A stretch of 64,000 nucleotides of DNA from Parcubacteria bacterium GBS-2 (GCA_001443025.1 LEKP01000001.1:97889-161888), one strand, 5' to 3'; shown: positions 17,017-33,834, counted from the first letter of the stretch. Notes: a model not told the origin generated them from the sequence alone. Translations and numbers: made by a program.

Positions 17017-17092
17017 TCCGCGGTAGCTCAATTGGTAGAGCGCCCGGCTGTTAACCGGAGGGTTGCAGGTTCGAGACCTGCCCGCGGAGCCA
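17017..17092 (+). tRNA. tRNA-Asn (anticodon GTT), CCA encoded
   Basis: Manual fold: acceptor TCCGCGG/CCGCGGA, D-arm GCTC-AATTGGTA-GAGC, anticodon loop CTGTTAA, T-arm GCAGG-TTCGAGA-CCTGC, discriminator G plus CCA. Confidence 0.9.
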
Positions 17093-17185
17093 TGTACCAG
17101 AGTTTGCTTTGCAAACACGGTACATGGCCATGAACCGTGCTTTGTTCTGGTTCATGGCCCTTTTGTTTCTCCAAGAGAAACAAAA
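17091..17185 (+). other. three consecutive strong hairpins directly after tRNA-Asn (terminator stack or small structured RNA)
   Basis: HP1: CATGTACC/GGTACATG (17091-98 with 17119-26), with inner GTTTGC/GCAAAC. HP2: GGCCATGAACC/GGTTCATGGCC (17126-36 with 17149-59). HP3: TTTTGTTTCTC/GAGAAACAAAA (17161-71 with 17175-85). Confidence 0.5.
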
Positions 17186-17404
17186 ATTATCAATGAAAAA
17201 ATTGCAATAAAGAACTCTAAAATTATTACTAAAAGATTCATTGAAACTAAGTTAAATTCACCCATCGCTGGACATTTTTTTGTTTTATGTATTATCGTGC
17301 TTTTTTATTTTACGCTATATTTTTAGGAAGTTACTAAAAGCTTAGATTCTGGCGCTTAATGATTTGAACCCTCTTGATTTTCGTTTCGTTTTCGTGTTAT
17401 CTTA

Positions 17405-17444
17405 AATTCATCAAACAAGTTCTAAAATCATCCATCAAGCGGAG
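17405..17444. repeat. 40-bp direct repeat, copy 1
   Basis: AATTCATCAAACAAGTTCTAAAATCATCCATCAAGCGGAG matches 23322-23361 at 39/40 positions. Confidence 0.9.
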
Positions 17445-17803
17445 TACTTTCAATTTACTTTTTAAAAAATGTTAATCGCGCTTTAAAATGTTTTTTATTT
17501 TTCCAAAAAACTAATTTTTTTAATGAATAACTTACTACTTAACTCTTTTAGAAATTTAATCGAATCAGTTGCGCTTTAAAGAAAATTTTTTAAAGTTCTC
17601 AAAAGAAGAAATCTAAAATTATTCAATAATTCTCTGAAACTATTTTTTCTGTTATTAAGGGGTGCGTTTTTCGTAATTTATTAAACTAAAGTATAGTATT
17701 TTTTCATATTTTTATTCGTTGAAAAATTAAATGGAAGAATATAATTAAATAATAAAAAATTTACTATTGACAAAAAACAAATAATTTGATTAAATATAAG
17801 AAA

Positions 17804-20317
17804 ATGAAAGAAATAAACCTTCAGCTAATTCTTATTTTTTGTTTTATCCATGTTTTTATTTTCAATTCTTTTGTTTTAGCTGAAACTCAAGAATACGTTG
17901 AGGGAGAAATAATTGTAAAGTTTAAAAAAAACGAAATAGGCCTAAATGATTTTGAAAATCAATTTTCGTTACAAACAAAAGAAACTCTAAATTGGCTAAA
18001 TGTAGTAGTTTTTAAAATTTTAGATCAAAAATCCATTGAAGAAAAAATAGAAGAAATTAAAAAGAATCCTGAAAATAACGCTGAAAATATTATAGAGTAT
18101 GTCGAACCGAATTATTTAAGATATCCTTTAGAAATTAATACCGATGATCCTCATAAAAACCTTCTCTGGGCGTTGGAAAATTTTGGTCAAGGGGTTAATG
18201 GAATTTCAGGAACTGAAGATGCAGACATTGATTTTTCTGAAGCGAGGGAAATGTTAGAAAATATTGAGAACGAAGTAATTGTCGCGATTATTGATACTGG
18301 AGTTGCTTACAATCACCCAGATCTTGATGAAAAAATGTGGAGAGTAAATAATTGGATAGACGAAGAAGGAAATCAAAAAAGTGGAGATGAAATTACTGGA
18401 TTTGATTTTAAAGATAAAGATAATTCTCCTTTAGATAGTGTTGGTCACGGGACGCATTTGGCAGGAGTTATTGGGGCAATTAAAGGGAATAGAAAAGGAA
18501 TCTTAGGAGTAGCGCCTAATGTGAAAATGATGGCTTTGAGAGTAGGAGATGAAAGTGGTTTTTCTGTTGTGGATATAGTGCGAGCAATTTTCTTTGCAAA
18601 AAACAACGGAGCCAAAATTATTAACGCAAGTTTTGGAGGAAAAGGAGAAAGTCAATTAGAAAAAGAAGCAATTTACTATTTCAAAGAGGCTGGCGGACTT
18701 TTTATTACTTCAGCTGGGAACGATGGAATTGATATTGATCAAAGTCCAATTTATCCTTGTGCTTATGAATTGGAAAACATTATTTGCGTAACAGCCACTA
18801 ATCAAAATGATCAATTGGCTAGGTTCTCAAATTATGGAAAAAATTCTGTTGATATTGGGGCACCTGGAGTAAATATTTATAGTGTTTTTCCTTCTTTTTT
18901 GGAAGTTTTTTTTGAAAATTTTGAAAATACTGATTTTTTTGAAAAATTTAATGCCACCGGAGTAGTTGTTACTTCCACAACCAGGGAAAATGAAAATACT
19001 TTAGCATTAAAAACCGATGTAAAAGAAAATGAACCTTGCTTTAATTTTCAATTAAAAAATCCTCTAATTTTTGATAATCTTGAGGAGATTGAAGGGGTTT
19101 ATTTTAATTTTTTGACTAAATTTGAGACAAATTCAAGTTCGACGTATTTAAAATTGAGTTTCAGTCAAAACGAAGAAAATTTTACTGAAATTTTAAAAAT
19201 TTCAAGAGACGATTTGGATAATGAAGAATGGAAGAAAATCAAAATAAAAATTCCTCCTGATTTTTGGGAAGATCTATTTAATTTCAGATTCGAGGGATGT
19301 GTCCAGAATGGCGATATTATTTGGATTGATGATATTAAAATTTTTATTGTAGACGATGGTTCTAATGAAAATTATGAATTTTTAGATGGAACGTCAATTT
19401 CTGCTTCTTTTGTTTCGGGTTTGGCAAGTTTAATTTGGGGAATAAAACCAGAATTAACCTTTTCTGAAGTAAAAGAAATTATTTTAAACACTGGAGATTC
19501 TTTGACTTTTTTGGAAAATAAAACTGCTACTGGGAAAAGAATTAATTTGTTCAGAGCATTAGACAAAATTGAGCCTCCAATTATCGACAACTTCATTGTT
19601 TTTTTCGATATCTCAAACCCTTCTAAAATTTCAGTTCTTAGTTTCGATGCCTATGACAATTCAGGAAATTGTTGGTATTTAGTCAGCGAGGATCCTAATC
19701 CTCCTTCTTTCGATGATCCTCGATGGCTATTTGATCAATTTCCGACCCCAATTGAATATGATCTTCAACGAGAGGGGATTAAAACTCTTTATGGATGGGT
19801 AAAAGATGGAGCTGGAAATTTTGTGAGTACGAGTAGTTCAATTTTAATCGACTGGACTCCCCCTCCTTATCCATTAACACTTTTGAATTTACCTCCAAAA
19901 AACACAAAATCAACTTCCGCAAAAATAATGATTGGAGGAGAGGATGTGGCATTTTATAAATACAAATTAGACAATGGAGATTGGAGTGAAGAATTACCTG
20001 TAACCATTCCAATAGAATTTAGCGAATTATCTTTAGGTTATCACACGCTCTATGTTTTAGGAAGAGATGCGATTGGGAATTGGCAGACAGCTCCAACCAG
20101 TTATACTTGGAGAATATATCGAGAAAGAATGATTTTTCCTTCAATTCCAATAAAAAACGGGGATTTTAACGGCGATGGAAAGGTTGATAAATACGATTTA
20201 GGTTTGATGATGGCTAATTGGGAAAGGAAAGGTGCTAACCCTTACGATTTAAATGGTGATGCCAAAGTCGACAAATATGATTTTGCTTTATTGATGCTAT
20301 ACTGGACTCTAGAATAA
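17804..20317 (+). CDS. secreted subtilisin-like (S8) serine protease with C-terminal type-I dockerin
   Basis: Signal peptide MKEINLQLILIFCFIHVFIFNSFVLA and an I9-like propeptide. Triad contexts IIDTGV, HGTHLAGVIGA, GTSISASFVSGLASL. The C-terminus has two EF-hand-like dockerin segments, DFNGDGKVDKYD and DLNGDAKVDKYD. Confidence 0.85.
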   Translation: MKEINLQLILIFCFIHVFIFNSFVLAETQEYVEGEIIVKFKKNEIGLNDFENQFSLQTKETLNWLNVVVFKILDQKSIEEKIEEIKKNPENNAENIIEYVEPNYLRYPLEINTDDPHKNLLWALENFGQGVNGISGTEDADIDFSEAREMLENIENEVIVAIIDTGVAYNHPDLDEKMWRVNNWIDEEGNQKSGDEITGFDFKDKDNSPLDSVGHGTHLAGVIGAIKGNRKGILGVAPNVKMMALRVGDESGFSVVDIVRAIFFAKNNGAKIINASFGGKGESQLEKEAIYYFKEAGGLFITSAGNDGIDIDQSPIYPCAYELENIICVTATNQNDQLARFSNYGKNSVDIGAPGVNIYSVFPSFLEVFFENFENTDFFEKFNATGVVVTSTTRENENTLALKTDVKENEPCFNFQLKNPLIFDNLEEIEGVYFNFLTKFETNSSSTYLKLSFSQNEENFTEILKISRDDLDNEEWKKIKIKIPPDFWEDLFNFRFEGCVQNGDIIWIDDIKIFIVDDGSNENYEFLDGTSISASFVSGLASLIWGIKPELTFSEVKEIILNTGDSLTFLENKTATGKRINLFRALDKIEPPIIDNFIVFFDISNPSKISVLSFDAYDNSGNCWYLVSEDPNPPSFDDPRWLFDQFPTPIEYDLQREGIKTLYGWVKDGAGNFVSTSSSILIDWTPPPYPLTLLNLPPKNTKSTSAKIMIGGEDVAFYKYKLDNGDWSEELPVTIPIEFSELSLGYHTLYVLGRDAIGNWQTAPTSYTWRIYRERMIFPSIPIKNGDFNGDGKVDKYDLGLMMANWERKGANPYDLNGDAKVDKYDFALLMLYWTLE

Positions 20318-20318
20318 A

Positions 20319-21224
20319 ATGAGGATGGAATTTAAAAATTTAAAAGTAATATTAATTTTAATTTCTAGTTTTTGGTTTGTTGATTTAGTCAATGCAGAAA
20401 ACCCCCTACTTTATGTTTTACCATCTAATTTAAACAAATTAGTGAACGAACCTTTCGAAATAGAAGTAAGAATAGATCCAAATGAAAGAAAAATTTGTGC
20501 AGTTGAGGGAAAAATTGTCTTTGAAAAAATTTTTTGCCAAAAAATTACTTTAGGAAAAAATATCATTGCGCAAACTTCTCCTTCTTGCGAAAACCCTTAT
20601 TTTCTTTTGGGAATCCCAGGATGTACTACTAATGATACTCTATTATTCACTGTAACCCTAAAAGGAGAAGCATTAGGTTTGGGAATTTTGAATTTTACCG
20701 AAGTCGACATTATAGGAGAGGGAAAATCAATTTCTTCAAATTTTGCTGGTGGAAATTATACTTTGGTTTCTCCTTGTTCTTGTGGAGAATGGAGTGATTG
20801 GCGAAATAAAAACTGCGGAGAAGGAACTTGCTCTTCAACTCAACGCCTTCAAATTCGTACCAGAACTTGTACACCGTCTGGATGCGACATTGAAACCCAG
20901 TATAAATGTATAGAAGATTCAAGTTGTATTCCAAGGTATCCAGCTGAAGAAGAAAAAATTGAAGAGGAAACACCAGTAGAGCAAACAACAGGAACTGAAT
21001 TAGAACAAGCTACTGAAAATGAAAAAGTTGAAAAACCAGAAAAAGGAACTTTTCAAAAAATTATTTTGCCCGAAATACCTCAGCAAAGTTTATTAGCTAC
21101 TTTGGCCATGGCTTGGAAGGAATTTACTAAATCTCCTTTGTTAATGACCCTAACCATTCTATCCTTGGTAAGTTTAGTTATAATCGGAATGAAAGAATGG
21201 CAATTACGAAGAAAAAAGAAATAA
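20319..21224 (+). CDS. membrane-anchored cohesin-like protein with TSP1-like Cys-rich module
   Basis: Signal peptide. Cohesin-like beta segment VNEPFEIEVRIDPNERKICAVEGKIVFEK..LFTVTLKGEALG. CGEWSDWRNKNCGEGTCSSTQRLQIRTRTCTPSGC fits the WSxW..C..RxRxC pattern. Acidic linker and a C-terminal TM helix followed by RRKKK. Confidence 0.55.
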   Translation: MRMEFKNLKVILILISSFWFVDLVNAENPLLYVLPSNLNKLVNEPFEIEVRIDPNERKICAVEGKIVFEKIFCQKITLGKNIIAQTSPSCENPYFLLGIPGCTTNDTLLFTVTLKGEALGLGILNFTEVDIIGEGKSISSNFAGGNYTLVSPCSCGEWSDWRNKNCGEGTCSSTQRLQIRTRTCTPSGCDIETQYKCIEDSSCIPRYPAEEEKIEEETPVEQTTGTELEQATENEKVEKPEKGTFQKIILPEIPQQSLLATLAMAWKEFTKSPLLMTLTILSLVSLVIIGMKEWQLRRKKK

Positions 21225-21271
21225 AAATAAGTGGGTGATCGAGCAAATACGTTTAAATACTTAACCAAAAC

Positions 21272-21294
21272 GCCCAGTGCTGGGCAATTTTTTT
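21272..21294 (+). terminator. rho-independent terminator
   Basis: GCCCA-GTGC-TGGGC followed by AATTTTTTT. Shares a ~30-bp module with the terminator at 23717. Confidence 0.65.
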
Positions 21295-21380
21295 ATTTCT
21301 TTAAGCTTTTCAGAAAAATAGATATCATAAAAATAGAAAGGCTGAAAGAAACATAAAGCTGTGAGCCTTTAAACTATTTC

Positions 21381-23099
21381 ATGAAAGAAAAAAATCAAAA
21401 ACAAAAAGCTTTTATCCAAATTCCAATATTGATAGCGGTTATTGTATCTTTTGCAGTAATCTCAATAGGAGGTTATGGCGGATTTGAATATTTTAAAACC
21501 TCCAAAATCATAAAAGAGGCCGAGCAGTTAGCAAGAGAAGAAAAATACGAAGAGGCAATTGAAAAATTAGAAATTGCTCAAAACAGATTACTCGGTAAGA
21601 TAATGCTTAAACAAACAATAAACACTAAGTTAGACGAAAACAAAAAACTCCTTACAGATAAAACAAAATATGATGAAGGAGTTAATAAACTTAACGAAGG
21701 CGACTTACAGGGTTCTATAGATTTATTATCAGAGCTTCCCGAAAACTCTTTTTATTATCAAAAAGCTCAAACTAAGATAGAAGAAGCAAAGAGAAAAATA
21801 CTAGAAGAAAAACTCTCAGAAGAGCAAATAGCGAGAAAAAAGGCGGAGGAAAAAGCAAAACAAGAAGAATTTGAAAAGAAATTAAAAGAACAACAATTAA
21901 TAAGCAAAGAGGTAGAAGAAAGAATGATGAACGCTGACAACGATGGCGACGGCTTAACTTATAGAGAAGAATTAAAATTAGGAACTTCTGATTGGAATAA
22001 AGATTCTGATTTTGATGGAATTCCAGATAATTTGGATCTACATCCAGCTGGTGGTGGAAGATATCAAGCTCAGACATTTGCTTGGAGTTATGGCGGCTAT
22101 AACTGGACTTGGACGGCTAATATTCATGAAGATTGGTATGAATATTATAAAGCTAAACCCCGATCTCCTCCTCTTAGTTTAGAATATATTACCTCTAACG
22201 ATCCCTTTATAAAAGAAGTAGCTAAAAAGATTTCCGAAGCCGCTATTAAAAATAATCTGAGTAAAAGTGCTTTAGTTGTAGCCTTTGTTCAAAGTCTATC
22301 TTATTTAGACGATGTATATACTGGTTATGATGAATATCCCAAATATCCCGTTGAAACTTTTTTTGAGAAAAATGGTGATTGTGAAGATATGAGTTATTTA
22401 GCAGCTTCTATTCTTAACGCCATGAATATAGATAGTGTTCTTGTTATCTTACCAGACCATATGGCAGTAGGAATTTGGTTTGATTGTGAAATGCCAGGGA
22501 CATATTATAAAGTTGGTGATAGATGTTATTACTATACAGAAACTACAGGAGAGGGATGGTTTTCAGGAGAAATACCTGACAAATATAAATATACAACTGC
22601 AACTTTAATAAAAATTCCCTCTGGAGAAAAAATAACTGTTTCACCCCAATATAAAAAACCTTGTTATGCTGTCAAAGATTTTCCAGGATATTATTCTGAT
22701 GGAAAAAACTTTTATTCTGATAGTCAATGTAATTATCTAGCTTATTGTGTACCCTACAAAGAGTTTTATGTTAATCCTCAAACATTAGACTTTTATTGGG
22801 ATAGTAGCTGTTCTCAATTAGTGGTAAAAGGTTGTTCTAAATCCACTTATTATCCAGGGTATTTCTTTGATGGTATTGATTATTATTATGACTCTCGATG
22901 TATCCAAAAAGCAAGAATATGTAGACCCTCTTCAATTTATTACGACAGATATTGGGATGGTTACGATCATTATTGGGATAGTAGTTGTACCCAAAGAGTA
23001 GTCCCAGGATGTTCCAAATCTATTTATCGTCCAGGATATTTCTTTGATGGTTGGAATTATTATTATGATTACCAATGCACCCAAAAAGTCTCATTTTAG
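21381..23099 (+). CDS. membrane-anchored transglutaminase-like (Cys-protease-fold) protein with TSP3-like Ca-binding repeats and C-terminal Cys/Tyr-rich repeats
   Basis: N-terminal TM helix, coiled-coil region, NADNDGDGLTYREE..DSDFDGIPDNLD. Cys/His core GDCEDMSYLAASIL..PDHMAVGIW. The C-terminus carries ~3 repeats of YWDSSC(S/T)Q.VV.GCSKS.Y.PGYFFDG..YYYD..C.QK. Confidence 0.55.
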   Translation: MKEKNQKQKAFIQIPILIAVIVSFAVISIGGYGGFEYFKTSKIIKEAEQLAREEKYEEAIEKLEIAQNRLLGKIMLKQTINTKLDENKKLLTDKTKYDEGVNKLNEGDLQGSIDLLSELPENSFYYQKAQTKIEEAKRKILEEKLSEEQIARKKAEEKAKQEEFEKKLKEQQLISKEVEERMMNADNDGDGLTYREELKLGTSDWNKDSDFDGIPDNLDLHPAGGGRYQAQTFAWSYGGYNWTWTANIHEDWYEYYKAKPRSPPLSLEYITSNDPFIKEVAKKISEAAIKNNLSKSALVVAFVQSLSYLDDVYTGYDEYPKYPVETFFEKNGDCEDMSYLAASILNAMNIDSVLVILPDHMAVGIWFDCEMPGTYYKVGDRCYYYTETTGEGWFSGEIPDKYKYTTATLIKIPSGEKITVSPQYKKPCYAVKDFPGYYSDGKNFYSDSQCNYLAYCVPYKEFYVNPQTLDFYWDSSCSQLVVKGCSKSTYYPGYFFDGIDYYYDSRCIQKARICRPSSIYYDRYWDGYDHYWDSSCTQRVVPGCSKSIYRPGYFFDGWNYYYDYQCTQKVSF

Positions 23100-23321
23100 T
23101 ATTTTCCCCAAAACTTTGTGCGACAATAAAGTAATATTTTTCAAAATCAAAGCGAAGGGAAAGAGTGTCTAAATCCAAATTTTGTATAGGATTACCTATA
23201 AATAACTTTTAAAACTTTCCGAGTTTACCACCCCCTCCTTTTGATAAATAGCTAGTAGAGGAAGGGAATATATCCGAAATGTCAAGCAGGCGTTAATAAT
23301 CACCGAAATTATTTTATATTG

Positions 23322-23361
23322 AATTCATCAACCAAGTTCTAAAATCATCCATCAAGCGGAG
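23322..23361. repeat. 40-bp direct repeat, copy 2
   Basis: AATTCATCAACCAAGTTCTAAAATCATCCATCAAGCGGAG; lies immediately upstream of the consensus promoter at 23368. Confidence 0.9.
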
Positions 23362-23367
23362 CAAAAT

Positions 23368-23396
23368 TTGACATGATATTTTGATAAAAATATAAT
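23368..23396 (+). promoter_or_regulatory. consensus sigma-70 promoter TTGACA-N17-TATAAT
   Basis: TTGACA at 23368-23373 and TATAAT at 23391-23396. ATG 23404 lies 7 nt downstream. Confidence 0.7.
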
Positions 23397-23403
23397 AAAA
23401 GTG

Positions 23404-23679
23404 ATGAATAAAGATTTCAGTGAGTTAATCGAATATTTAGATCAAAAATTCACAAAATTAAGTGAAGAGATAGCTCAACTTCGAGGAGAGGTAGGTGATA
23501 TTAAAGAGAGAATGGCAACAAAAGTAGAAATTGACAAACTTCTCGATGCAATAGATGCTTATATGAAACAAGGCGAAAATTATCGTCAGGAAATGGTGAT
23601 GTTAGCTCACAAAGTTGATAGGCATGAGAAATGGATAAAACAGATTGCTGAAAAGCTTGGAATAAAATTGGAATATTAA
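23404..23679 (+). CDS. small coiled-coil hypothetical protein (91 aa)
   Basis: Heptad-rich MNKDFSELIEYLDQKFTKLSEEIAQLRGEVGDIKERM..; has its own promoter and terminator. GTG 23401 is an alternative start. Confidence 0.6.
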   Translation: MNKDFSELIEYLDQKFTKLSEEIAQLRGEVGDIKERMATKVEIDKLLDAIDAYMKQGENYRQEMVMLAHKVDRHEKWIKQIAEKLGIKLEY

Positions 23680-23716
23680 TTTAAAAAATTTTTTTACTTT
23701 CTTATTAACCCAAAAC

Positions 23717-23740
23717 GCCCATCACTGGGCAATTTTTTTT
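23717..23740 (+). terminator. rho-independent terminator
   Basis: GCCCA-TCAC-TGGGC followed by AATTTTTTTT. Confidence 0.65.
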
Positions 23741-23775
23741 GGATAAAATGTTTAATTCATTTAAAATAAAAAAAC

Positions 23776-26700
23776 ATGGAGTTAAAACTTGTCTATAAAA
23801 ACCTTTGTCCAAATTGTGGGGGAAATATTAGCTCAGAAAGGCTGAGTAAGGGTTTGCCTTGTGAAAATTGTTTGCCAAATGAAAAAGGAAAATTAAAATT
23901 TGGTCCTTTATTGGAAGTTGAAGAAAGAAACAAAAGAATAGAAGAAATTGAAGAGCTTTTCAAAAAAGTAGTGAAAGCTAAAATGTGGGCTTTACAAAAG
24001 TTTTGGGTAAGAAGATTTTTAAAAGGTGAAAGCTTTACTTTGATTGCTCCGACAGGTTCTGGAAAAACGACAATCCAAATAATTTTGTGTTTGTTTTCAG
24101 CAAAATTTTTGAAAAAGAGATGCTTGATAATTTTACCAACCAGCATTTTAGTAAGCGAAGTGTCAAAAAGAATGAAAGATTTTTCAGAAAAATTAAACTT
24201 CAATCTCACAATTTCAAGTTATCACTCTTTACTTTCTCAAAAAGAAAAGAAAGAAGAAATTTCAAAGATTGATTTTGCAGACATTATTGTGACTACTCAC
24301 TTGAGCATAATGAAAAAAGAAGAAATAGCAAGGCAAAGCGTTGATGTTGTTTTTGTCGACGATGTAGATAGTTTTTTGAGAAAGAGCAAGGCAATAAGGT
24401 TTGTCTTGAGAATGATGAAGTTACCAGAAAAAATAAAAAAGATTGTCACAGGTGTTTTTGAAAAAAAGATTAATTTGAAAGATGCAATTTCTGAGATTTC
24501 AAACACAAAAGAAAAAATTACAGCCCAACTCATTGTTAGTGGAGCGACTCAAAAGGCAAAAAGGACAAGGGCAATTTCGATTTTAAATTCAATATTTGGA
24601 TTTTCGATTGGTTTAAAATCTGAGTTTGGAAGGAACATTTTAGATTGCTTTGTTGAGACAAAAGATATTAAAAAAGAGCTTTTAAATTTGGTTAAGATTT
24701 TGGGAGCTGGAGGTTTAATTTTTGTCCCAATGGATAAAAAATCTGAGTTTGCTGAAGAATTGGAGAAATTTTTGATAGAAAATGGAATAAAAGTTAAGGC
24801 ATTTTTAAAACCAGATAAAAAAACCTTTGAAGATTTCAAAAGCGGAAATTTGGATGCTTTAATTGGAATGGTGACAACGAGAAGCCCTCTAGTTAGGGGA
24901 ATTGATTTGCCTGCAAGAATTAGATATGCGATTTTTGGTGGAGTTCCAAAATTTGTAGTGAGAATAAAAATAGAAGAATTCCATCCTACAAAATGGCTAA
25001 TGCTTTTGAACAATCTTCAGCAGGCAATAAAGGAAGAGTATAAAAAAGAATACCAACTCCTTGTTGCAAATTTAATAAAAATAAAAACCTTGAATACAGA
25101 ACAACTGGAAGCAGTCAGAAAAGCTCTTGCTGAAAATAAAAATTTGGAAGGGTTTTTAGAATTTGTAAGGAAAGTTGCCTTAAGTGGATTGGAATTTTTC
25201 AAAAAAATTTTGAAAGATGAAGATATTTTAAAAGCAATAAGAGAATCCCCGACAATAAGCTTTAGCGAAAGAGAAGGGGAGTATTCGTTTTTGATTCCAG
25301 ATTCGATAGCTTACATTCAAGCCTCAGGAAGAACGAGTAGATTGTACATTGGAGGTGTAACAAAAGGATTGAGCGTTGTGATAATAGATGAAAAAAAAGC
25401 ATTCAATTCTTTGAAAAAGGATTTAAGTTATTTTGAAGATATTGAGTGGAAAAATTTGAAAGAAATCGATTTGAAAAAAGTTATTGAAGAGATTGATGAA
25501 GATAGAAAGAAGGTTTTGCTCTCTCTTGAAGATAAGTTGAGAGTGGAAGAAACAAAAATAGCTTTGAAGACAAGGTTATTCATCGTAGAATCACCAACTA
25601 AAGTGAAAACTATTGCGAGATTTTTTGGAAAGCCGGCAAAGAAAAGATACGAAGGTTTAATCGTTAATGAAGTTTTTGGGGCAAATTCCCTATTAATAAT
25701 CACTTCGAGTAAAGGACATATTACTGATTTGAGCGAAGAGGAAGGATTTTTTGGGGTTGAGGTAAAAGAAACCTTCATTCCCTACAATGAGCCAATAAGA
25801 AAGTGCGCAGTTTGTGGGAAAGAAATTGAAGAGAATGAAAAAGAGTGTGCTTGTGGAAGTAAAAAATTTACTGATTCAAAACCAAGAATTGAGGTTTTAA
25901 GAGAGATTGCATCTTTAGTGGATGAAGTGATCATTGGTACTGATCCTGATAGTGAAGGAGAAAGAATTGCTTTTGACTTGTGTTTGCTTTTGAAGCCATT
26001 CAACAAAAACATAAAAAGAGCAAGGTTTCACGAAGTCACAAAGAAAGAAATCCATCGGGTTTTGGAAAATTTGGAAGATTTTGATTTGAATTTGGTCAAG
26101 GCTCAATTGGTAAGAAGAATAGAAGATAGATGGATTGGATTTAGTATTTCTCCTGTACTTTGGATGGTTTTTAAAAACAAAAGGCTTTCTGCAGGAAGGG
26201 TTCAAACTCCAGTTTTGGGATGGGTTGTTGAGAGAACAAAAAAACTTAAAGAAAAAGAAGAGTTAATAAGTTTGAAATTAGAAAATGGCCTTCAATTACA
26301 ATTTAGGGCCAAAAAAGGAACTTATCAAAAAATTTCCAAAGAGGGATTTGTTGAGATAAAAAAAGTAAAGACCTTTAAAGAAGAAATAAGTCCTCTTCCT
26401 CCATTTACCACAGACACTTTTATTTCTGCTTTAACTTCCCTTTTGAAAATCGATGCTGGAGAAGCAATGCAAATTGCTCAAAAATTATTTGAAAGCGGAC
26501 TAATTACTTATCATAGAACTCCAAGCACTACTGTTAGTTCAGCAGGGATTAGTATTGCCAAAGAGTACATTTTTTCGAATTTTGGAGAAGAGTTGTTTAA
26601 AGCAAGAAAATGGGAAACAGAAGGAGCCCACGAATGTATAAGACCAACAAAAGCAATCGATTCTCAAAAGTTGAGAAATTTAATTGGATTGAAAATTTTG

Positions 26701-27333
26701 AGATTTCCAGTTCCTTTCACAGAAAGAGAAATGAGAGCTTATGATTTAATTTTCAAGAGATTTATCGCAAGTCAAATGAAACCTTCTAAAGTTGAGAAAA
26801 TAAAATTTAAAATTTTGGCTGGAGGACAAGAGAAAGAATTTGAATTTGTAAACAAAGTTTTAGAAGAAGGATTTTCAAAGATTTTTAAATTGCAAGAAAA
26901 AAACATTCTCGCTTTAAAAGAGGGAAAAACAAAAATTTTAGAGAGTAAAAAGAAAACAGTTCCAGTTTTTTACCCTTTTACTTACTCAGAAATCGTTTCG
27001 ATGATGAAAGAAAAAGGAATCGGAAGGCCTTCAACTTACGCCAAAATTTTGGAAATTTTAAAAAGAAGAAAATACGTGAAAGAAGTGAAAAAATCCATGT
27101 TAGTTTCTACAGTCTTGGGAAGAAAAGTTTTTGAGTTTTCACAGCAAAATTTTAGTAAATATTTGCACGAACAAACAACCAAAAAATTAGAAGAAGATAT
27201 GGACAGCGTTGAAACCGGAAAGAAAAAATTTGAAGAGGTCTTAAGAGAAATTTTTGTTCAAGTAAAAGAAATTATAAAAAATAACCTTGAAAAAGGAGTT
27301 GAATATCCAAATCTTTCATTGGTTAGATTTTAA
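23776..27333 (+). CDS. rgy: reverse gyrase (helicase-like domain fused to type IA topoisomerase)
   Basis: 1185 aa. N-terminal Zn finger CPNCGG..CENC. Helicase-like motifs APTGSGKTT, DDVD, SGAT, QASGRTSRL. TOPRIM LFIVESPTK and GTDPDSEGERIA. Internal Zn ribbon CAVCGK..CACGSKKF. Catalytic Tyr context LITYHRTPST. Confidence 0.9.
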   Translation: MELKLVYKNLCPNCGGNISSERLSKGLPCENCLPNEKGKLKFGPLLEVEERNKRIEEIEELFKKVVKAKMWALQKFWVRRFLKGESFTLIAPTGSGKTTIQIILCLFSAKFLKKRCLIILPTSILVSEVSKRMKDFSEKLNFNLTISSYHSLLSQKEKKEEISKIDFADIIVTTHLSIMKKEEIARQSVDVVFVDDVDSFLRKSKAIRFVLRMMKLPEKIKKIVTGVFEKKINLKDAISEISNTKEKITAQLIVSGATQKAKRTRAISILNSIFGFSIGLKSEFGRNILDCFVETKDIKKELLNLVKILGAGGLIFVPMDKKSEFAEELEKFLIENGIKVKAFLKPDKKTFEDFKSGNLDALIGMVTTRSPLVRGIDLPARIRYAIFGGVPKFVVRIKIEEFHPTKWLMLLNNLQQAIKEEYKKEYQLLVANLIKIKTLNTEQLEAVRKALAENKNLEGFLEFVRKVALSGLEFFKKILKDEDILKAIRESPTISFSEREGEYSFLIPDSIAYIQASGRTSRLYIGGVTKGLSVVIIDEKKAFNSLKKDLSYFEDIEWKNLKEIDLKKVIEEIDEDRKKVLLSLEDKLRVEETKIALKTRLFIVESPTKVKTIARFFGKPAKKRYEGLIVNEVFGANSLLIITSSKGHITDLSEEEGFFGVEVKETFIPYNEPIRKCAVCGKEIEENEKECACGSKKFTDSKPRIEVLREIASLVDEVIIGTDPDSEGERIAFDLCLLLKPFNKNIKRARFHEVTKKEIHRVLENLEDFDLNLVKAQLVRRIEDRWIGFSISPVLWMVFKNKRLSAGRVQTPVLGWVVERTKKLKEKEELISLKLENGLQLQFRAKKGTYQKISKEGFVEIKKVKTFKEEISPLPPFTTDTFISALTSLLKIDAGEAMQIAQKLFESGLITYHRTPSTTVSSAGISIAKEYIFSNFGEELFKARKWETEGAHECIRPTKAIDSQKLRNLIGLKILRFPVPFTEREMRAYDLIFKRFIASQMKPSKVEKIKFKILAGGQEKEFEFVNKVLEEGFSKIFKLQEKNILALKEGKTKILESKKKTVPVFYPFTYSEIVSMMKEKGIGRPSTYAKILEILKRRKYVKEVKKSMLVSTVLGRKVFEFSQQNFSKYLHEQTTKKLEEDMDSVETGKKKFEEVLREIFVQVKEIIKNNLEKGVEYPNLSLVRF

Positions 27334-27894
27334 TTTTGATTTTAAAAACAAAATTGAGATAGTAGAAAATAAAGCAGTTGAAATGGCAATGAGTTTTGGG
27401 GACAAATTTTTTTCTTTAGAATCTTTTGGAATCTCTGCCAAAAGTTTTTGAGGTTTCTCTTTTTCAATTTCAGGTTTTAAAATTTTTATTTTCTCTCTGG
27501 CTTGAACATAAGAACTTTTCCCACTTTCTCTGACTTTTATTACAACTTCAGCCTCTCCCTCAAAAAACAAAAATTCTTTTTTCATTCTCAATTTTAATTT
27601 TCCCTCAAAAGAAGGACCCGAAAATAAATTTTTAAGATAATAAAAGGAATCTCTCCATTTTTGGTTTTTCTCATCGTATACTTCAGATAATACCTTATCT
27701 TTTTCAATAGAAATTTTTAAATCATAAGAGGTATTTTTTAAATTCGAAATTGAAACAAAAATTTCAACTTCTTCGTTTGCCTTAAAGCTTTCTGGAAAAG
27801 AAAGCGAAATTTTTGGTTTTTGTTGGGCTTTGGCAAGAGCAATTTCAAAGGAGAAAAGTAAAATGGAAATTGCAAAGATTTTAAACAGTTTCAT
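27316..27894 (-). CDS. hypothetical secreted protein with C-terminal membrane anchor
   Basis: Signal peptide MKLFKIFAISILLFSFEIALA, beta-rich body, C-terminal TM helix LIAISTALFSTISILFL. Its 3' end overlaps the rgy 3' end by 18 nt. Confidence 0.5.
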   Translation of the reverse strand: MKLFKIFAISILLFSFEIALAKAQQKPKISLSFPESFKANEEVEIFVSISNLKNTSYDLKISIEKDKVLSEVYDEKNQKWRDSFYYLKNLFSGPSFEGKLKLRMKKEFLFFEGEAEVVIKVRESGKSSYVQAREKIKILKPEIEKEKPQKLLAEIPKDSKEKNLSPKLIAISTALFSTISILFLKSKLKSNQ

Positions 27895-27914: not shown

Positions 27915-30900
27915 ATGGAAGAAAAAGAAATCATTGAGAGAGTAATTTTAGAAAACAAAATTGAAAAGTTAAACCCTGTTCAGCAAGGGGCATTAAAAAT
28001 GGGGATTTTGAAAAGGGAAAGCTTGGTTGTTTCTTCTCCAACATCAAGCGGAAAGACTCTTTTGGCAGAATTGGCAGGATTGAACGTTACTCTAAATAAA
28101 AGAAAAAAGATGGTTTATCTTTGTCCCTTAGTTGCTTTGGCAAGGGAAAAATACGAGGATTTCAAAAGAAAATATCAAAAATATGGAATCAAAGTTGCTC
28201 TTTCTGTCGGAAATTATGATTCTTCAGATCCTTGGCTTGAAAAATTTGATTGGATAGTTGCCTCAAATGAAAAATTCGATTCTTTAATCAGGCACGAAGC
28301 TCCTTGGATAGGAGAAATTGGTTTAATTGTTGCAGACGAAATTCATCTTTTGGACGATCCAAGCAGGGGACCGACCTTGGAAATTTTGTTAACGATTTTG
28401 AAAGAAATTTTACCAAAAGCTCAAATTTTGGCATTTTCAGCAACAATCAAAAACGCAGATGAAATAGGGGAGTGGTTGGGAGCAAAAGTTTTAAAATCAA
28501 ATTTTAGGCCAGTCCCTCTTTACAAGGGAATTTTGTTTGGAGGAAAAATAAAATTGTTTGATTTCAAAGAATACAAATTGAGTCAAGAATTAGGACTCGA
28601 AGAATCAATAGTTGAAAACACTCTTTTAATGAAAAAGCAATTGATATTTTTCCTTTCTTCAAGAAGGAATGCCGAGGCCTTAGCAGAAAGGCTTTCAAAA
28701 TTGGTTTTTCACTTTTTGGAAGAAAAAGAAATTGAAAAACTAAGAGAAATTTCAAAGAAAATTGAAACTACATTAGAAATTCCAACTGAGCAATGCAAAA
28801 AATTGGCAAAATGTGTAGAAAAAGGAGTTGCATTCTATCATTCTGGAATTTTGTTTGGACAGAGAGTTTTAATCGAAGAGGCTTATAAAAAGGGATTAAT
28901 AAAAGTCATTACCTCGACAACTGCCCTTTGCGTACATCCAGACACTTTAGTTTATTGTCAAAACGGGGAATTAAAAAAAATTAAAGATCTAAAAATTGGT
29001 GAAAAAATTTTGACCTTCAATTTTAAAAATTTCACTTTTAAATTTGCTAAAGTTCTTAAAAAATTTGCTAGACCTTTATCCAAAAAAGAAAAACTCATTG
29101 AGATAACAACATTCAGTGGGAAAAAAATAATTACAACCTCAACCCACCCATTTCTTACACTAAAAGGAGGACAATTCAAATGGATTTCAGCCTCTCAATT
29201 GAGTAAAAAAGATTATCTCGTAGTAGCTAAAGAAATTCCACAACCAAAAAGCAAAACTCCCAATTTCCTTGAAATTTTACCCAGTAACGCCAGGATAGCG
29301 GAGAAGAAATTAATAAAATTCGTTTTGAACGAATTAATTAAGAAATATAAGACAAAAGTAAACATTTCAAGAAAATTCAAAATAAATATAAAAAAATTGG
29401 AAACTTATTTCAATCGAGGAACGAGCTTGCCTTTTAAATACTTTCGGAGTTTTATTAAAGATTTAGATATAAAACCTGAATTTCTTTCAAGAACAATCCA
29501 TATATCTAGCTGGAAACAAATGGATAAAATAAAAATTTCTCAGAATTTAAATCTTTTAGCAAGACTGTATGGAATTTTGTTAGGTGATGGCAATCTTTTA
29601 AAAGTCAAGAGTTTTAATCGAGGGAATACTTATCTCATCTCTCTTACAAGCGGAGATGAAAAATGGCTTAAACAATATCAGACCCTGTTAAGAAAATTTG
29701 GTCTTCAAACCAAAATTCGGTCCCATCTCAAATTTTCTGGAGTGAAACAAATATCCTTTAAATCAAAAATTTTAGGAGAAATATTACATGAAAAATTAAA
29801 TTTTCCATTGGGAAGAAAAGCGAAAATCATCAAAATAACGCCTTTCTTTCTCTCCTCGAACGAACTTTTAAAAGAGGTAATCGGTGGCTTGATCGACACT
29901 GATGGAAGTATAGGTAAAGATAAAATAGAAATTTCTTCGATTAGTAAAGAATTGATTCAACAACTTCAACTTGCTTTAATGAGATTTGGTATCTATTCCC
30001 ACCTCGAAAAAAGAAAAAAACATCTCACCCGTTTAGTAAAATCAAAAAATCCTTCTTATCGATTGTCTATTTTTGGAAAAAACGCAATTCTCTTTAAAAG
30101 AAATTTTACCTTGCTTCATTATAAAAAAAGAGAAAAGCTCAAGTTAATTAAAGAAAAATCAAACACCTATAGCAAAGATATTATTCCAGATTCTGGCACT
30201 TTTATTAAAAAAATTTTAAAAGAAACAAAATTATCTCAATGGAAATTCAGAAAGATAGTTAAATTGAGCCCCTGGCATTATTTAGTTAAGGGACAAAATC
30301 TTTTAAGGAAAACTATTCTAAATAATTTTTCTAAATTACCCAATTCAAGAACGCTTTGTTTTTTAAGAAAAATAGCAAACTCTCCTTTAGCTTTTGAGCA
30401 AATTAAGCGTATAAAAGAAGTTAAAAAATCGATTGTTTACGATTTAACAACTACTGAGAATTTTTGGGCTAATGGATTTGTGATTCATAATTCCTACGGT
30501 ATCAATCTTCCAAATTTCCGAGCAGTAGTTAGAGATGTGAAAAGATACTATCCAGGATTAGGATCTGTTTATTTGCCGGTTTTGGAAGTTGAACAAATGT
30601 TTGGAAGGTCTGGAAGACCTCAATTTGACAGTTGGGGAGAAGGGATTTTGGTGGCAAAGACAAAAGAAGATGTAAAGGAATTAGAAGATTATTACATTAA
30701 GGGAGAATTAGAAGAAATTTCAAGTAAAATTTCCACAGAATCTGCCTTAAGGATGCATATTTTATCTTTAATTTCAAACAGGTTTTGTAAAAGCCAAAAT
30801 CAATTGTTAGATTTTTTGAAAAAGACATTCTTTGGAAAAAAGTTCAAAGAAATTTTGATTTTAAGAGAGAAAATTGAGGAAGTGATTTTTGCCCTCGAGG

Positions 30901-31625: not shown

Positions 31626-32259
31626 TGCCAGATCTTTTCCAAAGAGAAAGTAAAATTTTGAAGTTTTCTTTTTTCTTTTTCAGAAAAAGACAGTTAAAAT
31701 CGATTTCCTCTTCGATAGTAAAAATTCTTCCTAAGGGAATGAAATTTCTTTTTTCAACTAAACTCACTAATTCCCCAAAACTCAAAAGATTTTTCTTTCT
31801 CAATGGATCTGGATTGTATTTTTGGTAAGAATTTGGAGAGAATTTTTGAATCGTCTCTAAAAATAAAAAAATTTTTGTTACTCTTTTTAGCTCATTAAGC
31901 GCTCTTTCTCTCTCTTTTTTGTTCAAGTATTCAATCACATCAAAACAAGTTACCACCTCAAAACTTTCTTTTTTAAATGGCAACTTCAAAATATTTCCTT
32001 TTATAATTCATTTTTTTGCTGGAGAATTTTTAAGGCAAAAATTAGATATTTCCACTCCAAAAGCCTTGTATCCCATTTTCCTCAGTGCCAAAACTAGCCC
32101 TCCCATTCCACACCCAACATCTAAAAACTTCCAGGATTTTTTTGGTTTCAAAACTTCAACCAGTCTTTTTGCTTCAAACTTTCCTAATTTCTTGTAATTT
32201 TTTAAATAATCGGAATACCAACCACTCGAAAAATATTTTTCATCAAAATCTAGTTTCAT
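31618..32259 (-). pseudogene. class I SAM-dependent methyltransferase interrupted by one in-frame TGA
   Basis: Motif I FLDVGCGMGG lies upstream and FEVVTCFDVIEYL downstream of a single TGA (complement of 32008-32010). Same frame throughout: ..NSPAKK*IIKGNILKLPFKK.. Confidence 0.6.
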
Positions 32260-32266
32260 TTTGAGT

Positions 32267-33804: not shown

Positions 33805-33834
33805 ATTATTTTATTTTTGGATTTTCAAGATTTA

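Follow-up and report, generated by a model that had tools for sequence, protein, structure and literature searches.

The window, as we call the whole 64-kb stretch of DNA analysed here, encodes a full-length reverse gyrase in which the catalytic and zinc-binding residues are conserved. Reverse gyrase is a DNA-overwinding enzyme typical of heat-loving microbes. Taking the evidence jointly, we hold it very probable that the enzyme is functional in an AT-rich thermophile belonging to the Parcubacteria/Paceibacteria, that the gene came from archaea by inter-domain transfer before a hot-spring clade of these bacteria diverged, and that it has been under purifying selection since.

A full-length reverse gyrase with conserved catalytic and zinc-binding residues

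The initial annotation, made from the sequence alone, had proposed a reverse gyrase of 1185 residues with a set of quoted motifs; the ORF listing and a motif search recovered the frame and every one of these motifs (Table 1). An open frame of 3.5 kb at 32% GC excludes a chance ORF. The protein matched the NCBIfam model TIGR01054 ('reverse gyrase') from end to end (residues 4–1166 on model positions 3–1172 of 1172) at 1163.9 bits, where the cutoff is 471.7, whereas the TopA and Topo III models scored below their cutoffs. The Pfam domains zf_Rg, DEAD, Toprim and Topoisom_bac follow one another in the order in which the hallmarks had been read. The solved reverse gyrases of A. fulgidus and T. maritima matched at E-values of 1e-189 and 1e-182, respectively, which identifies the product as a reverse gyrase along with the profile match.

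Across 131 homologues, 28 functional residues are conserved, the majority of them invariant. In the helicase-like module (aa 55–392 align with 3OIY, the helicase domain of T. maritima reverse gyrase), Gly94 and Lys97 of Walker A are present in 131/131 homologues; Asp195 and Asp196 of motif II (FVDDVD in A. fulgidus reverse gyrase) and Gln515, Gly518, Arg519 and Arg522 of motif VI are likewise invariant. The same holds for the acidic TOPRIM residues Glu605, Asp723, Asp725 and Glu727 (131/131) and for Tyr912 (131/131), which pairs with Tyr809 of A. fulgidus (ENGLITYHRT; the number 809 is counted off the alignment coordinates), so that the TOPRIM and tyrosine motifs are aligned as they had been read. 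Cys11, Cys14, Cys29 and Cys32 of the N-terminal zinc finger (CPNCGG, aa 11–16) are kept in 124–128 of the 131 homologues, and Cys677, Cys680, Cys691 and Cys693 of the internal zinc ribbon in 117–122, including 8/8 members of the CPR clade.

An AlphaFold model of the 1185-residue protein (pLDDT 87.6, pTM 0.84) gave TM 0.82/0.88 against PDB 7FSF/4DDT over ~1183 columns and, against full-length T. maritima and A. fulgidus structures, TM 0.75–0.82 (query) and 0.87–0.90 (target) over 1125–1184 columns. The window protein thus has the same single-chain architecture as the A. fulgidus (PDB 1GKU/1GL9) and T. maritima (4DDT–4DDX, 7FSF) enzymes: a zinc finger, two RecA-like domains with an insertion, a TOPRIM domain with a zinc ribbon, a type IA core and all catalytic motifs. 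It differs from them in being only 31–35% identical and 80–130 residues longer; most of the extra length comes from a helical insertion at aa ~404–495 that is larger than theirs. This insertion gave no HMMER alignment to the A. fulgidus enzyme; over aa 404–490 it is built of helices in the model (pLDDT 86–93), and its position suggests that it is the equivalent of the latch. The protein is complete and apparently works as an enzyme.

Table 1. Positions of the reverse gyrase gene, its domains and motifs, and other features of the window
Feature	Position	Strand	Basis
GroEL	1521-3155
DnaG	14138-15865
RpoD	15862-16989
tRNA-Asn(GTT), upstream of reverse gyrase	17017..17092	+
Strain-variable segment, tRNA-Asn to reverse gyrase	17093..23775	.	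ORFs of 843 (subtilisin-like), 301, 572 and 92 aa, in that order
Candidate terminator-like hairpin with T-run, ending 92-aa ORF	23717-23730	+	consensus scan and sequence inspection
Candidate weak promoter-like site	23740-23767	+	consensus scan and sequence inspection
Reverse gyrase CDS, 1185 aa, ATG start	23776..27333	+	ORF listing, TIGR01054, structures
N-terminal reverse gyrase zinc finger, aa 4-38	23785..23889	+	Pfam PF17915 zf_Rg, E 4e-17
SF2 helicase-like ATPase module, aa ~55-590	23938..25545	+	Pfam DEAD aa 74-222
Walker A/motif I APTGSGKTT, aa 91-99, Lys97	24046..24072	+	motif match
Motif II DDVD, aa 195-198	24358..24369	+	motif match
Helical insertion in second RecA-like domain, aa ~404-495, at latch position	24985..25260	+
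Helicase motif VI QASGRTSRL, aa 515-523	25318..25344	+	motif match
TOPRIM domain, aa 601-753	25576..26034	+	Pfam PF01751, E 1.8e-18
TOPRIM Glu605 in ESPTK, aa 605-609		+	motif match
Internal zinc ribbon within TOPRIM (CAVCGK/CACGS), aa 677-695	25804..25860	+	motif match
TOPRIM DPDSEGE (Asp723/Asp725/Glu727), aa 723-729	25942-25962	+	motif match
Type IA topoisomerase core, aa 770-1156	26083..27243	+	Pfam PF01131 Topoisom_bac, E 9.7e-84, profile 3-410/411
Catalytic tyrosine codon, Tyr912 (GLITYHRT; ITYHRT aa 910-915)	26509..26511	+	alignment
Conserved 192-aa ORF, convergent, 18-nt overlap with reverse gyrase 3' end	27316..27894	-
Hel308-type (archaeal-type Ski2-like) helicase, 1236 aa	27915..31625	+
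LAGLIDADG intein in Hel308, 521 aa, aa 339-859	28929-30491	+
S5	52996-53490
L15, 16 bp past S5	53507-53935

Archaeal relatives and the probable direction of transfer

The closest named relatives, at 61–77% identity over the full length, come from MAGs labelled Aenigmatarchaeota or Pacearchaeota; reverse gyrases of the Sulfolobales and Desulfurococcales follow at about 49% (~47–51%), and a Nautiliaceae bacterium (L024) and other groups at 36–38%. A distance-based neighbour-joining tree (100 bootstraps) recovered at 79% a subclade of CPR sequences (A), which includes the window gene. Its union with two subclades from archaeal contexts (B and C) received 100%, as did the union of A+B+C with the main Aenigmatarchaeota clade; the Sulfolobales and Desulfurococcales form the next outgroup. 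The Aenigmatarchaeota and other DPANN enzymes (for example L001–L007, P0034–P0045; 1178–1195 aa, host GC 31–34%) belong to the 100% clade that holds the window gene, and they differ from it in their archaeal hosts, distinguishable codon usage and lack of flanking synteny with the window. Archaeal contexts are evident where the gene lies beside S19e, L37ae and RFC (L028) or RadA, FEN1 and PolD (L036). The same clade also includes bacterial contexts that do not look like CPR, one with OEP/MMPL (L030, diderm-like) and one with GyrB/MutS/MutL (L034). The Aenigmatarchaeota labels on L001 and L002 are the depositors' own, and no domain-specific marker was found within ±10 kb of their reverse gyrase genes.

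Because close relatives are found among archaea as well as bacteria, this lineage of the gene has crossed domains repeatedly; with archaea in both of the successive outgroups, the group is ultimately archaeal in origin. We infer that the window gene came from archaea, with the DPANN Aenigmatarchaeota as its closest named relatives; an exact donor and the direction of transfer can be read from the tree only tentatively. The initial annotation had left the choice between archaea-to-bacteria and bacteria-to-bacteria transfer. A transfer is upheld and its source narrowed to archaea, as the gene falls inside an archaeal group, and the classical bacterial clades drop out as the source. Aquificota and Thermotogota are among the classical bacterial carriers of reverse gyrase. 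The classical bacterial enzymes belong to the same family, and they too represent the uptake of a thermoadaptive gene by a bacterium; they lie in another part of the tree, at the 36–38% identity given above, and are not ancestral to the window gene. The crenarchaeal TopR1/TopR2 type is similar in length to the window protein. Its hosts are free-living hyperthermophiles that often have two paralogues, whereas one copy was seen in the 64 kb of the window.

It is rather unlikely, if well short of negligible, that the family instead arose or diversified in bacteria, possibly CPR, and was acquired by the Aenigmatarchaeota of subclade B, or that CPR obtained it from another bacterium. The mixture of CPR, L030, L034 and archaea within A+B+C would fit such a history, the internal nodes are weak (A+B 44%, C 11%), and parsimony requires ~3 inter-domain events whichever polarity is chosen; against it stand the successive archaeal outgroups and the low identity of the classical bacterial enzymes.

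The probable host and its predicted growth temperature

GroEL, DnaG, RpoD, EF-G, EF-Tu, SecY and AlaRS in the window all match bacterial models, and no uL30 gene lies between S5 and L15 in its spc operon, in keeping with the earlier description of the neighbours as bacterial and CPR-like. Among the best 120 SecY matches, the sole named relative is Parcubacteria group bacterium CG1_02_39_15 (62%), and the others form a continuum at 61–85%. As one marker only, SecY gives moderate evidence for membership; together with the absence of uL30, it points to a host in the Parcubacteria/Paceibacteria. Another small, AT-rich, thermophilic bacterium outside the CPR is an improbable host. Such an assignment would draw on there being one named SecY relative, on the lack of an rRNA gene within the 64-kb window and on the fact that uL30 is missing from some non-CPR bacteria too. 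Against it, the named SecY relative is a Parcubacterium amid relatives at 61–85%, uL30 is absent here, the longest contigs among the relatives measure 0.5–0.8 Mb (only suggestive), and a hot-spring Paceibacteria MAG with reverse gyrase has been reported (PMC9789041).

The initial annotation had pictured a heat-adapted host. The IVYWREL fraction of 0.427 (18,923 residues) predicts ~65 °C by the Zeldovich relation, the tRNAs have 64.5–67% GC in a genome of 33% GC, and the sample names of the archaeal reverse gyrase relatives refer to Tengchong hot springs. These proxies suggest a thermophile growing near 65 °C, which does not imply a hyperthermophile.

Locus, residence and selection

A tRNA-Asn gene lies upstream of reverse gyrase in the window and in two diverged relatives, abutting it directly in L027 (9863–9936) and lying 1.5 kb away in L032. 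The segment between the two genes in the window is missing in the syntenic L027, and in the near-identical strains L037 and L038 HicAB takes the place of the window's 92-aa ORF immediately upstream of reverse gyrase. The candidate terminator and the weak candidate promoter in this interval are consensus matches, which is not proof of function. On its 517-kb contig, L027 has glycosyltransferases, DnaG, RpoD, tRNA-Asn, reverse gyrase (86%), a 193-aa ORF, an intein-bearing Hel308, a methyltransferase and onward in the same order; L035 (reverse gyrase 75%) shares the downstream synteny, and the junction of reverse gyrase, 192-aa ORF and Hel308 is the same in L037 and L038, which come from two other samples. 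The 192-aa ORF, 69% identical in L027 and also present in L035, L037 and L038, gave no family match in the profile search.

The neighbouring helicase contains the Pfam domains DEAD, HTH_61, Helicase_dom4_arc, HHH_5, Intein_splicing and LAGLIDADG_3. Its best NCBIfam models (PRK02362, PRK00254 and NF040935 Hel308; 464–656 bits) all remain below their full-length cutoffs because the 521-aa intein splits the match; the extein of 715 aa corresponds to the intein-free allele of L035. With Aenigmatarchaeota as its closest named relatives (48–52%), this Hel308 is by its sequence archaeal in type. Decay is seen in genes near reverse gyrase in this strain: a methyltransferase is split, and a radical-SAM gene survives as a truncated remnant.

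The reverse gyrase gene has GC 0.317, GC3 0.258 and a synonymous log-likelihood of -0.899, compared with window means of 0.336, 0.260 and -0.906. Its host-versus-archaeal codon score (+0.018) is host-like, given +0.040±0.022 for window genes and -0.041±0.018 for archaeal genes. dN/dS is 0.079 against L027, at dS ~1, and 0.06–0.08 between strains, for a range of 0.06–0.09 over strain and genus depth. Reverse gyrase therefore behaves as a long-resident host gene under strong purifying selection. The initial annotation had argued against a very recent transfer from AT-rich usage; that reading held, although the match in AT-richness by itself proves little because the archaeal relatives are also at 31–34% GC. 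Stronger evidence comes from the codon-usage likelihood test, from the synteny that diverged relatives conserve and from a dS of ~1 against the nearest congener.

Selection of this strength also bears on the reading of the gene as a relic, decaying or repurposed, whose product might for instance bind or relax DNA without positive supercoiling in a host that is no longer thermophilic. We regard this as very unlikely: the frame is intact, the ATPase, TOPRIM, tyrosine and zinc-ligand residues are all conserved, dN/dS is low at both depths, and proteome and tRNA composition point to thermophily, against which weigh the decay of neighbouring genes and the occurrence of reverse gyrase in some merely moderately thermophilic bacteria, such as Nautilia. 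The locus is no chimera, as had been argued earlier: a misjoining, in assembly or binning, of an archaeal fragment with reverse gyrase and Hel308 to a bacterial contig might be suspected from the archaeal closest named relatives of both genes and from the ~32% GC common to donors and recipient, which also co-occur in samples (as L027 and L028 do in JGI 3300050342), but it has next to no probability, being contradicted by bacterial genes on both sides of the pair in one window, by recurrence of the arrangement in the 86% congener and the 75% relative, by the same downstream junction in the other-sample strains and by codon usage of both genes on the host side in the likelihood test.

Prior reports and proposed role

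Reverse gyrase is carried by a clade of hot-spring Parcubacteria beyond this genome, and the genes of this clade are already annotated as 'reverse gyrase' in IMG. The initial annotation had been aware of no description of the enzyme as a CPR trait; this stands in that no explicit description is known, and is qualified by the IMG labels and by the implicit report in PMC9789041. Thus the enzyme is a known one, and the host lineage is one for which it had no explicit prior description. A precedent for genes moving between these two groups of ultrasmall organisms is form III-like RuBisCO, for which the passage of PMC8407114 that cites Jaffe et al. 2019 gives DPANN–CPR exchange, including from Aenigmarchaeota to CPR; RuBisCO differs in being a metabolic enzyme without a temperature link, whereas reverse gyrase acts on DNA topology.

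We propose that the gene entered the sampled hot-spring Parcubacteria from archaea before their divergence and has been kept by strong purifying selection since. Its product fuses an SF2 helicase-like ATPase (Lys97, DDVD, motif VI) with a type IA topoisomerase (Glu605, Asp723/725, Tyr912) and contains two elements that bind zinc. By analogy with the A. fulgidus, T. maritima and Sulfolobus enzymes, ATP binding would close the helicase-like module and unwind DNA locally, Tyr912 would cut one strand to form a 5′-phosphotyrosine intermediate, and directional strand passage would raise the linking number, yielding positive supercoiling. By the same analogy, the enzyme may also protect and re-anneal damaged DNA at high temperature, and both its activity and its part in heat adaptation would follow those of its relatives. 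A tiny-genome CPR bacterium of hot springs thus appears to carry a reverse gyrase traced to ultrasmall archaea of the DPANN type, and not to other bacteria.

The reverse gyrase gene and its product

The window gene begins with ATG and encodes a protein of 1185 residues, which the initial annotation had described as a full-length reverse gyrase. All of the motifs claimed there were found, in the order and at the positions given, and are listed below with the Pfam domains. The NCBIfam equivalog model TIGR01054 ('reverse gyrase') matched residues 4-1166 over model positions 3-1172 of 1172, with a score of 1163.9 bits against a cutoff of 471.7, whereas the TopA and Topo III models of NCBIfam all fell under their own cutoffs. 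This end-to-end match, together with the sub-threshold TopA and Topo III scores, excludes a TopA-like half joined to an unrelated ATPase.

Features of the window and of its reverse gyrase (aa, residues of the protein; nt, nucleotides of the window)
Feature	Position	Strand	Source or remark
Zinc finger CPNCGG	aa 11-16		motif search
Walker A APTGSGKTT	aa 91-99		motif search
DDVD	aa 195-198		motif search
QASGRTSRL	aa 515-523		motif search
ESPTK	aa 605-609		motif search
Zinc ribbon CAVCGK…CACGS	aa 677-695		motif search
DPDSEGE	aa 723-729		motif search
ITYHRT	aa 910-915		motif search
zf_Rg	aa 4-38		Pfam
DEAD	aa 74-222		Pfam
Toprim	aa 601-753		Pfam
Topoisom_bac	aa 770-1156		Pfam
Helical insertion	aa ~404-495		AlphaFold2 model
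GroEL	nt 1521-3155		bacterial gene
200-aa ORF	nt 5458-6060	+	
tRNA-Ser(GGA)	nt 5460-5547		
Glycosyltransferase run	nt 8945-14103	-	five tandem ORFs
DnaG	nt 14138-15865		bacterial gene
RpoD	nt 15862-16989		bacterial gene
tRNA-Asn to reverse gyrase stretch	nt 17017-23775		
Reverse gyrase	nt 23776-27333	+	ORF listing
Hel308	nt 27915-31625	+	
Hel308 intein	nt 28929-30491		LAGLIDADG
Split SAM methyltransferase	nt 31618-32346	-	
Radical-SAM remnant	nt 33730-34335	+	
605-aa ORF	nt 38697-40514	+	
EF-G	nt 41971-44061		bacterial gene
EF-Tu	nt 44123-45322		bacterial gene
SecY	nt 53925-55196		bacterial gene
AlaRS	nt 60551-62257		bacterial gene

A phmmer search of the PDB returned the reverse gyrases of A. 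fulgidus (1GL9/1GKU, E 1e-189) and T. maritima (4DDT, E 1e-182). In the phmmer alignment, ENGLITYHRT of A. fulgidus pairs with GLITYHRT of the window protein, placing Tyr912 on the catalytic Tyr809, and the motifs ESPTK, GTDPD(S/T)EGE, APTG(S/V)GKT, FVDDVD and Q(A/G)SGRTSRL are each in register. Across a MAFFT alignment of 131 full-length homologues, Gly94, Lys97, Asp195, Asp196, Gln515, Gly518, Arg519, Arg522, Glu605, Asp723, Asp725, Glu727, Tyr912 and Arg914 are invariant; the eight zinc-binding Cys are kept in 117-128 of the 131, and in 8/8 members of the CPR subclade.

AlphaFold2, run on an alignment of 42 sequences, gave a model with a mean pLDDT of 87.6 and a pTM of 0.84. The top Foldseek match of this model in the PDB is full-length T. 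maritima reverse gyrase (7FSF; TM 0.82/0.88 over 1183 columns), followed by that of A. fulgidus (TM 0.75-0.77 on the query, 0.87-0.89 on the target) and then by bare topoisomerase I structures (TM ~0.39 on the query). The helical insertion, which is confidently modelled in the second RecA-like domain, is the sole region that HMMER left unaligned to A. fulgidus; from its position, it may correspond to the latch of characterised enzymes. Judged by its sequence, the predicted enzyme is a textbook reverse gyrase in which all residues needed for the mechanism are present, and from its likeness to characterised enzymes we infer that it would be active.

The steps of that mechanism are well established for reverse gyrases (review: Lulchev & Klostermeier 2014, as cited in PMC9789041). 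ATP bound at the helicase-like module (Lys97, DDVD and motif VI) would close the cleft and locally unwind the duplex, and the latch would couple the topoisomerase gate to this movement. With the help of Mg2+ and the acidic cluster of TOPRIM, Tyr912 would then cleave a single strand, and one-way strand passage would raise the linking number. Apart from supercoiling, the enzyme may coat and protect nicked DNA at high temperature.

Host assignment, contiguity and predicted heat adaptation

Bacterial genes flank the reverse gyrase on either side, in keeping with the bacterial, CPR-like surroundings first described. No uL30 gene lies between S5 and L15 in the window, L15 starting 16 bp after S5; absence of uL30 is a recognised CPR trait according to a passage of PMC9297842. 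Among the best 120 of 8000 SecY matches, which span 61-100% identity, the sole named sequence is 'Parcubacteria group bacterium CG1_02_39_15' (62%), and no rRNA gene occurs within the 64-kb window. From this single marker and the missing uL30, the host is very probably a member of the CPR, class Paceibacteria/Parcubacteria.

Several other features of the window were observed. Three of the five tandem ORFs in the glycosyltransferase run are paralogous GT4-type enzymes (39-47% mutual identity); the run also holds an aminoglycoside-phosphotransferase-like gene and is kept directly upstream of dnaG-rpoD in L027, a syntenic contig. The 605-aa ORF, just upstream of the S12-S7-EF-G operon, has a GC content of 0.41 versus 0.33 and the worst codon fit of the window (-1.14); it matches the phage tail-fibre domains Gp34_trimer and Peptidase_S74 intramolecular chaperone and may be a phage-derived or surface fibre. 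The 5' end of the 200-aa ORF wholly overlaps tRNA-Ser(GGA), so this ORF is probably no real gene; ARAGORN found both tRNA-Ser and tRNA-Asn, and Rfam at its gathering threshold only tRNA-Asn. Gene decay in the window strain is seen in a SAM methyltransferase split into ORFs of 123 and 112 aa, which is intact (213-214 aa) in L027 and in a second relative, L035, and in a 201-aa remnant that matches a radical-SAM gene only in part, where both relatives carry a DUF362 and radical-SAM pair.

The gene order around the reverse gyrase recurs in other assemblies. L027, a 516,918-bp JGI contig, carries four glycosyltransferases, DnaG, RpoD, tRNA-Asn, reverse gyrase, a 193-aa ORF, an intein-bearing Hel308 helicase (81%), methyltransferase, GNAT and pyrophosphatase, and then HD and NUDIX genes; in L035, all gene order downstream of reverse gyrase is as in the window. 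The junction of reverse gyrase, a 192-aa ORF and Hel308 also occurs in two further samples, in near-identical strains (ERZ27289264 and SRR7539479).

The composition of the gene lies inside the window distribution, with GC of 0.317 (window 0.336±0.029), GC3 of 0.258 (0.260±0.035) and a synonymous-codon log-likelihood of -0.899 (-0.906±0.069). GC was dropped as a test of foreignness, since hosts of the clade range from 25 to 39% GC, with each reverse gyrase matching its own host. Because the loci of archaeal relatives have the same GC as the window (31-34%), codon likelihood under the window reference was contrasted instead with that under an archaeal reference from the flanks of two archaeal loci, L028 and L036. 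The contrast is +0.040±0.022 for window genes and -0.041±0.018 for archaeal genes; the window reverse gyrase scores +0.018 and Hel308 +0.034, versus -0.026 and -0.045 for archaeal reverse gyrases. Codon usage of the gene is host-like, perhaps slightly intermediate; by eye, the annotation had judged the gene to share the AT-rich, Lys/Glu/Ile-rich usage of its neighbours. Nei-Gojobori dN/dS is 0.079 against L027 (dS ~1.0), 0.088 against L035 and 0.06-0.08 between strains (8-9 synonymous versus 2-3 non-synonymous changes). These values indicate a constrained, long-resident chromosomal gene, and with the synteny, the two independent assemblies and the codon contrast they argue strongly against both a chimera and a very recent transfer. 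The initial finding is real, and its interpretation is supported.

The reading of the host as heat-adapted also agrees with its predicted proteins. The IVYWREL fraction over 62 window proteins (18,923 residues) is 0.427, which by the Zeldovich relation (937F-335) gives an estimated growth temperature of ~65 °C; the charged-minus-polar bias is +0.147, and the two window tRNAs are 64.5% and 67% GC in a genome of 33% GC. Such signatures are standard for a thermophile and do not require hyperthermophily. Any organism that lives at a high enough temperature would be expected to have reverse gyrase.

Relatives of the gene and the neighbouring Hel308 helicase

Homologues fell into tiers of 100% identity (three assemblies), 71-86% (30 clusters, nearly all metagenome proteins), 58-63% (mainly named Aenigmatarchaeota) and ~47-51% (Sulfolobales and Desulfurococcales). 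Among GTDB species representatives, two full-length MAGs and one contig-truncated MAG (746/1185 residues), all labelled Aenigmatarchaeota, reach 77%; further Aenigmatarchaeota and Pacearchaeota MAGs, with names from the Tengchong hot-spring sites DRTY-6, JZ-1 and ZZQ, reach 61-63%, and a Nautiliaceae bacterium and other groups 36-38%. Hosts were assigned from gene context for a subset of tree tips. An NCBIfam and Pfam scan found no domain-diagnostic gene around L001 and L002, two of the 77% loci labelled Aenigmatarchaeota, and L028 and L036 were used as verified archaeal contexts in their place. L027 and the archaeal L028 come from one and the same sample.

Loci carrying close relatives of the window gene
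Locus	Identity to window gene	Gene context	Assigned host
L027	86%	syntenic with window	CPR lineage
L035	75%	syntenic downstream	CPR lineage
L032	73%	L11, S6-SSB-S18, DnaX, ClpB, GatC	bacterium
L028	76%	S19e, L37ae, Rpr2, intein-laden RFC	archaeon
L036	74%	RadA, FEN1, STT3, PolD DP2, diphthamide synthase	archaeon
L030	74%	OEP, MMPL, bacterial MetK; 39% GC	different, diderm-like bacterium
L034	71%	GyrB, MutS, MutL; 26% GC	another bacterium

A neighbour-joining tree (Kimura distances, 1164 columns, 100 bootstraps; distance-based only) placed the window gene in an archaeal group. The hot-spring CPR subclade A (P0001-8, P0022 and P0028) and the mostly archaeal subclade B each have 79% bootstrap. 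The joint clade of A, B and a further related subclade, C, has 100%, as does its union with the main Aenigmatarchaeota clade, with Sulfolobales and Desulfurococcales next outside. This nested and outgroup placement at 100% nodes points to an ultimately archaeal origin of the allele family, with Aenigmatarchaeota as the closest named lineage; archaea-to-bacteria mobility of reverse gyrase is well known. On the assigned contexts, at least three inter-domain transfers would be needed within A+B+C. The A+B node has a bootstrap of only 44%, so the tree does not fix the immediate donor to the CPR lineage. Reverse gyrase/SecY identities to the window, for pairs whose contigs are equal in length and so probably one contig, are ~86/82, 75/81 and ~73/66. 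One reverse gyrase in the 90% cluster of the L032 protein is on a contig of 56,859 bp, which is also the length of the contig bearing a SecY with 66% identity to that of the window. The window, L027 and L032 all have tRNA-Asn upstream of reverse gyrase. The paired identities and the tRNA position both fit one gain, with vertical inheritance in these Parcubacteria thereafter.

Other members of the allele family have varied surroundings. The diderm-like L030/L031 (JGI 3300045871, SRR25522543; like L034, within 71-74% identity to the window gene) also carry IlvD nearby, and a cluster member lies on a 2.4-Mb contig. In L034 (GCA_964502135.1), reverse gyrase follows MutS-MutL near GyrB, which shows that reverse gyrase and gyrase coexist in a single genome. 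The L028 reverse gyrase adjoins a 2064-aa replication factor C gene (3786-9980, minus strand) that is interrupted by two LAGLIDADG inteins; in the community of that sample, DNA-metabolism genes appear often to carry inteins.

Next but one after the window reverse gyrase lies the gene of a Hel308/Hjm-type helicase; helicases of this family are typical of archaea. An intein of 521 aa interrupts it at …TSTTAL/C…HN/SYGINLP, leaving an extein of 715 aa, the length of the intein-free L035 allele. Its best named relatives are Aenigmatarchaeota (48-52%), and in a neighbour-joining tree the window, L027, L035 and L039 proteins and 53-91% relatives form one clade apart from Aenigmatarchaeota. The literature searched contained no link between Hel308 and CPR. 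Co-transfer of both genes as a single archaeal block is unsupported: they are non-adjacent in every archaeal locus examined, their divergence from named Aenigmatarchaeota is unequal (61-77% for reverse gyrase versus 48-52% for Hel308), L039 has a 59% Hel308 homologue in a bacterial context without reverse gyrase, and the more distant, reverse-gyrase-bearing L032 lacks an adjacent Hel308. L039 suggests that the archaeal-type helicase is wider spread than reverse gyrase in these bacteria and was acquired separately. The context of this locus, on a 156-kb contig (JGI 3300038380), comprises LigA, GtrA-DnaX, a complete F-type ATP synthase operon, DinB, TGT, TruB and a UvrD-like gene.

As for a mobile vector, no viral contig carried a close reverse gyrase relative, no att-like repeat of the tRNA-Asn 3' end was found in the window, and the interval from tRNA-Asn to reverse gyrase showed no integrase. 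This interval differs between strains. In the window, it spans 6.7 kb and holds ORFs for a subtilisin-like protein of 843 aa, a product of 301 aa, a Cys/Tyr-rich protein of 572 aa and a coiled-coil product of 92 aa; in L027 (9863-10000), reverse gyrase follows directly on the tRNA, and in the near-identical strains L037 and L038 a HicA/HicB toxin-antitoxin pair is immediately upstream.

Prior reports and implications

The reference reverse gyrase phylogeny of 2019 (376 sequences) leaves CPR and DPANN unmentioned (PMC6878951), and a full-text literature search found no paper that explicitly describes the enzyme as a CPR, Patescibacteria or Parcubacteria trait. In Kerguelen hot springs, 29 of 42 MAGs have reverse gyrase and the 13 lacking it are listed (PMC9789041); RB32-MAG13, the sole Patescibacteria/Paceibacteria MAG, is off that list, so the trait was reported there implicitly and without comment. 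Genes of relatives are already labelled 'reverse gyrase' by IMG. The supposition that this is not a described CPR trait therefore holds for explicit descriptions, but not for the Kerguelen data or the IMG annotations. The enzyme itself is ordinary and its genes are already annotated in public metagenomes; what is new is the host radiation, the DPANN-like archaeal source and the neighbouring archaeal-type Hel308.

Reverse gyrase of thermal Aenigmarchaeota has been published, with an inferred origin from Bathyarchaeota, and a passage of the same study reports Aenigmarchaeota-to-CPR transfer of RuBisCO (PMC8407114). Patescibacteria are among the phyla richest in MAGs in Tengchong springs. It is possible, though we propose it tentatively, that the capture of archaeal DNA-maintenance genes was part of how a hot-spring Parcubacteria clade became thermophilic, with reverse gyrase from an Aenigmatarchaeota-like DPANN archaeon and Hel308 earlier from a similar source, and that this family of reverse gyrase alleles later passed three or more times among ultrasmall archaea, CPR and larger bacteria of the same springs. 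Because the only cultured Parcubacteria known parasitise archaea (PMC12281837, PMC10936435), this pattern could be the trace of a physical association between CPR and archaea at high temperature, in which genes passed across domains from one symbiont to another or from host to symbiont.

Reverse gyrase serves as a presence/absence marker of (hyper)thermophily and is an input when the growth temperatures of ancestors, LUCA among them, are reconstructed (PMC6878951); its presence in LUCA has been assigned a PP of 0.97 (PMC11383801). The window copy, being clearly secondary and archaeal-derived, speaks against CPR reverse gyrase as ancestral and is further evidence that trees of reverse gyrase are blurred by transfer between domains. 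The interest of the finding lies in ecology and evolution rather than in the enzyme: a bona fide, selected CPR copy widens the host range of reverse gyrase by a major bacterial radiation, offers a concrete marker for heat-adapted Parcubacteria and provides, after RuBisCO, a second example of genes passing between DPANN archaea and CPR.
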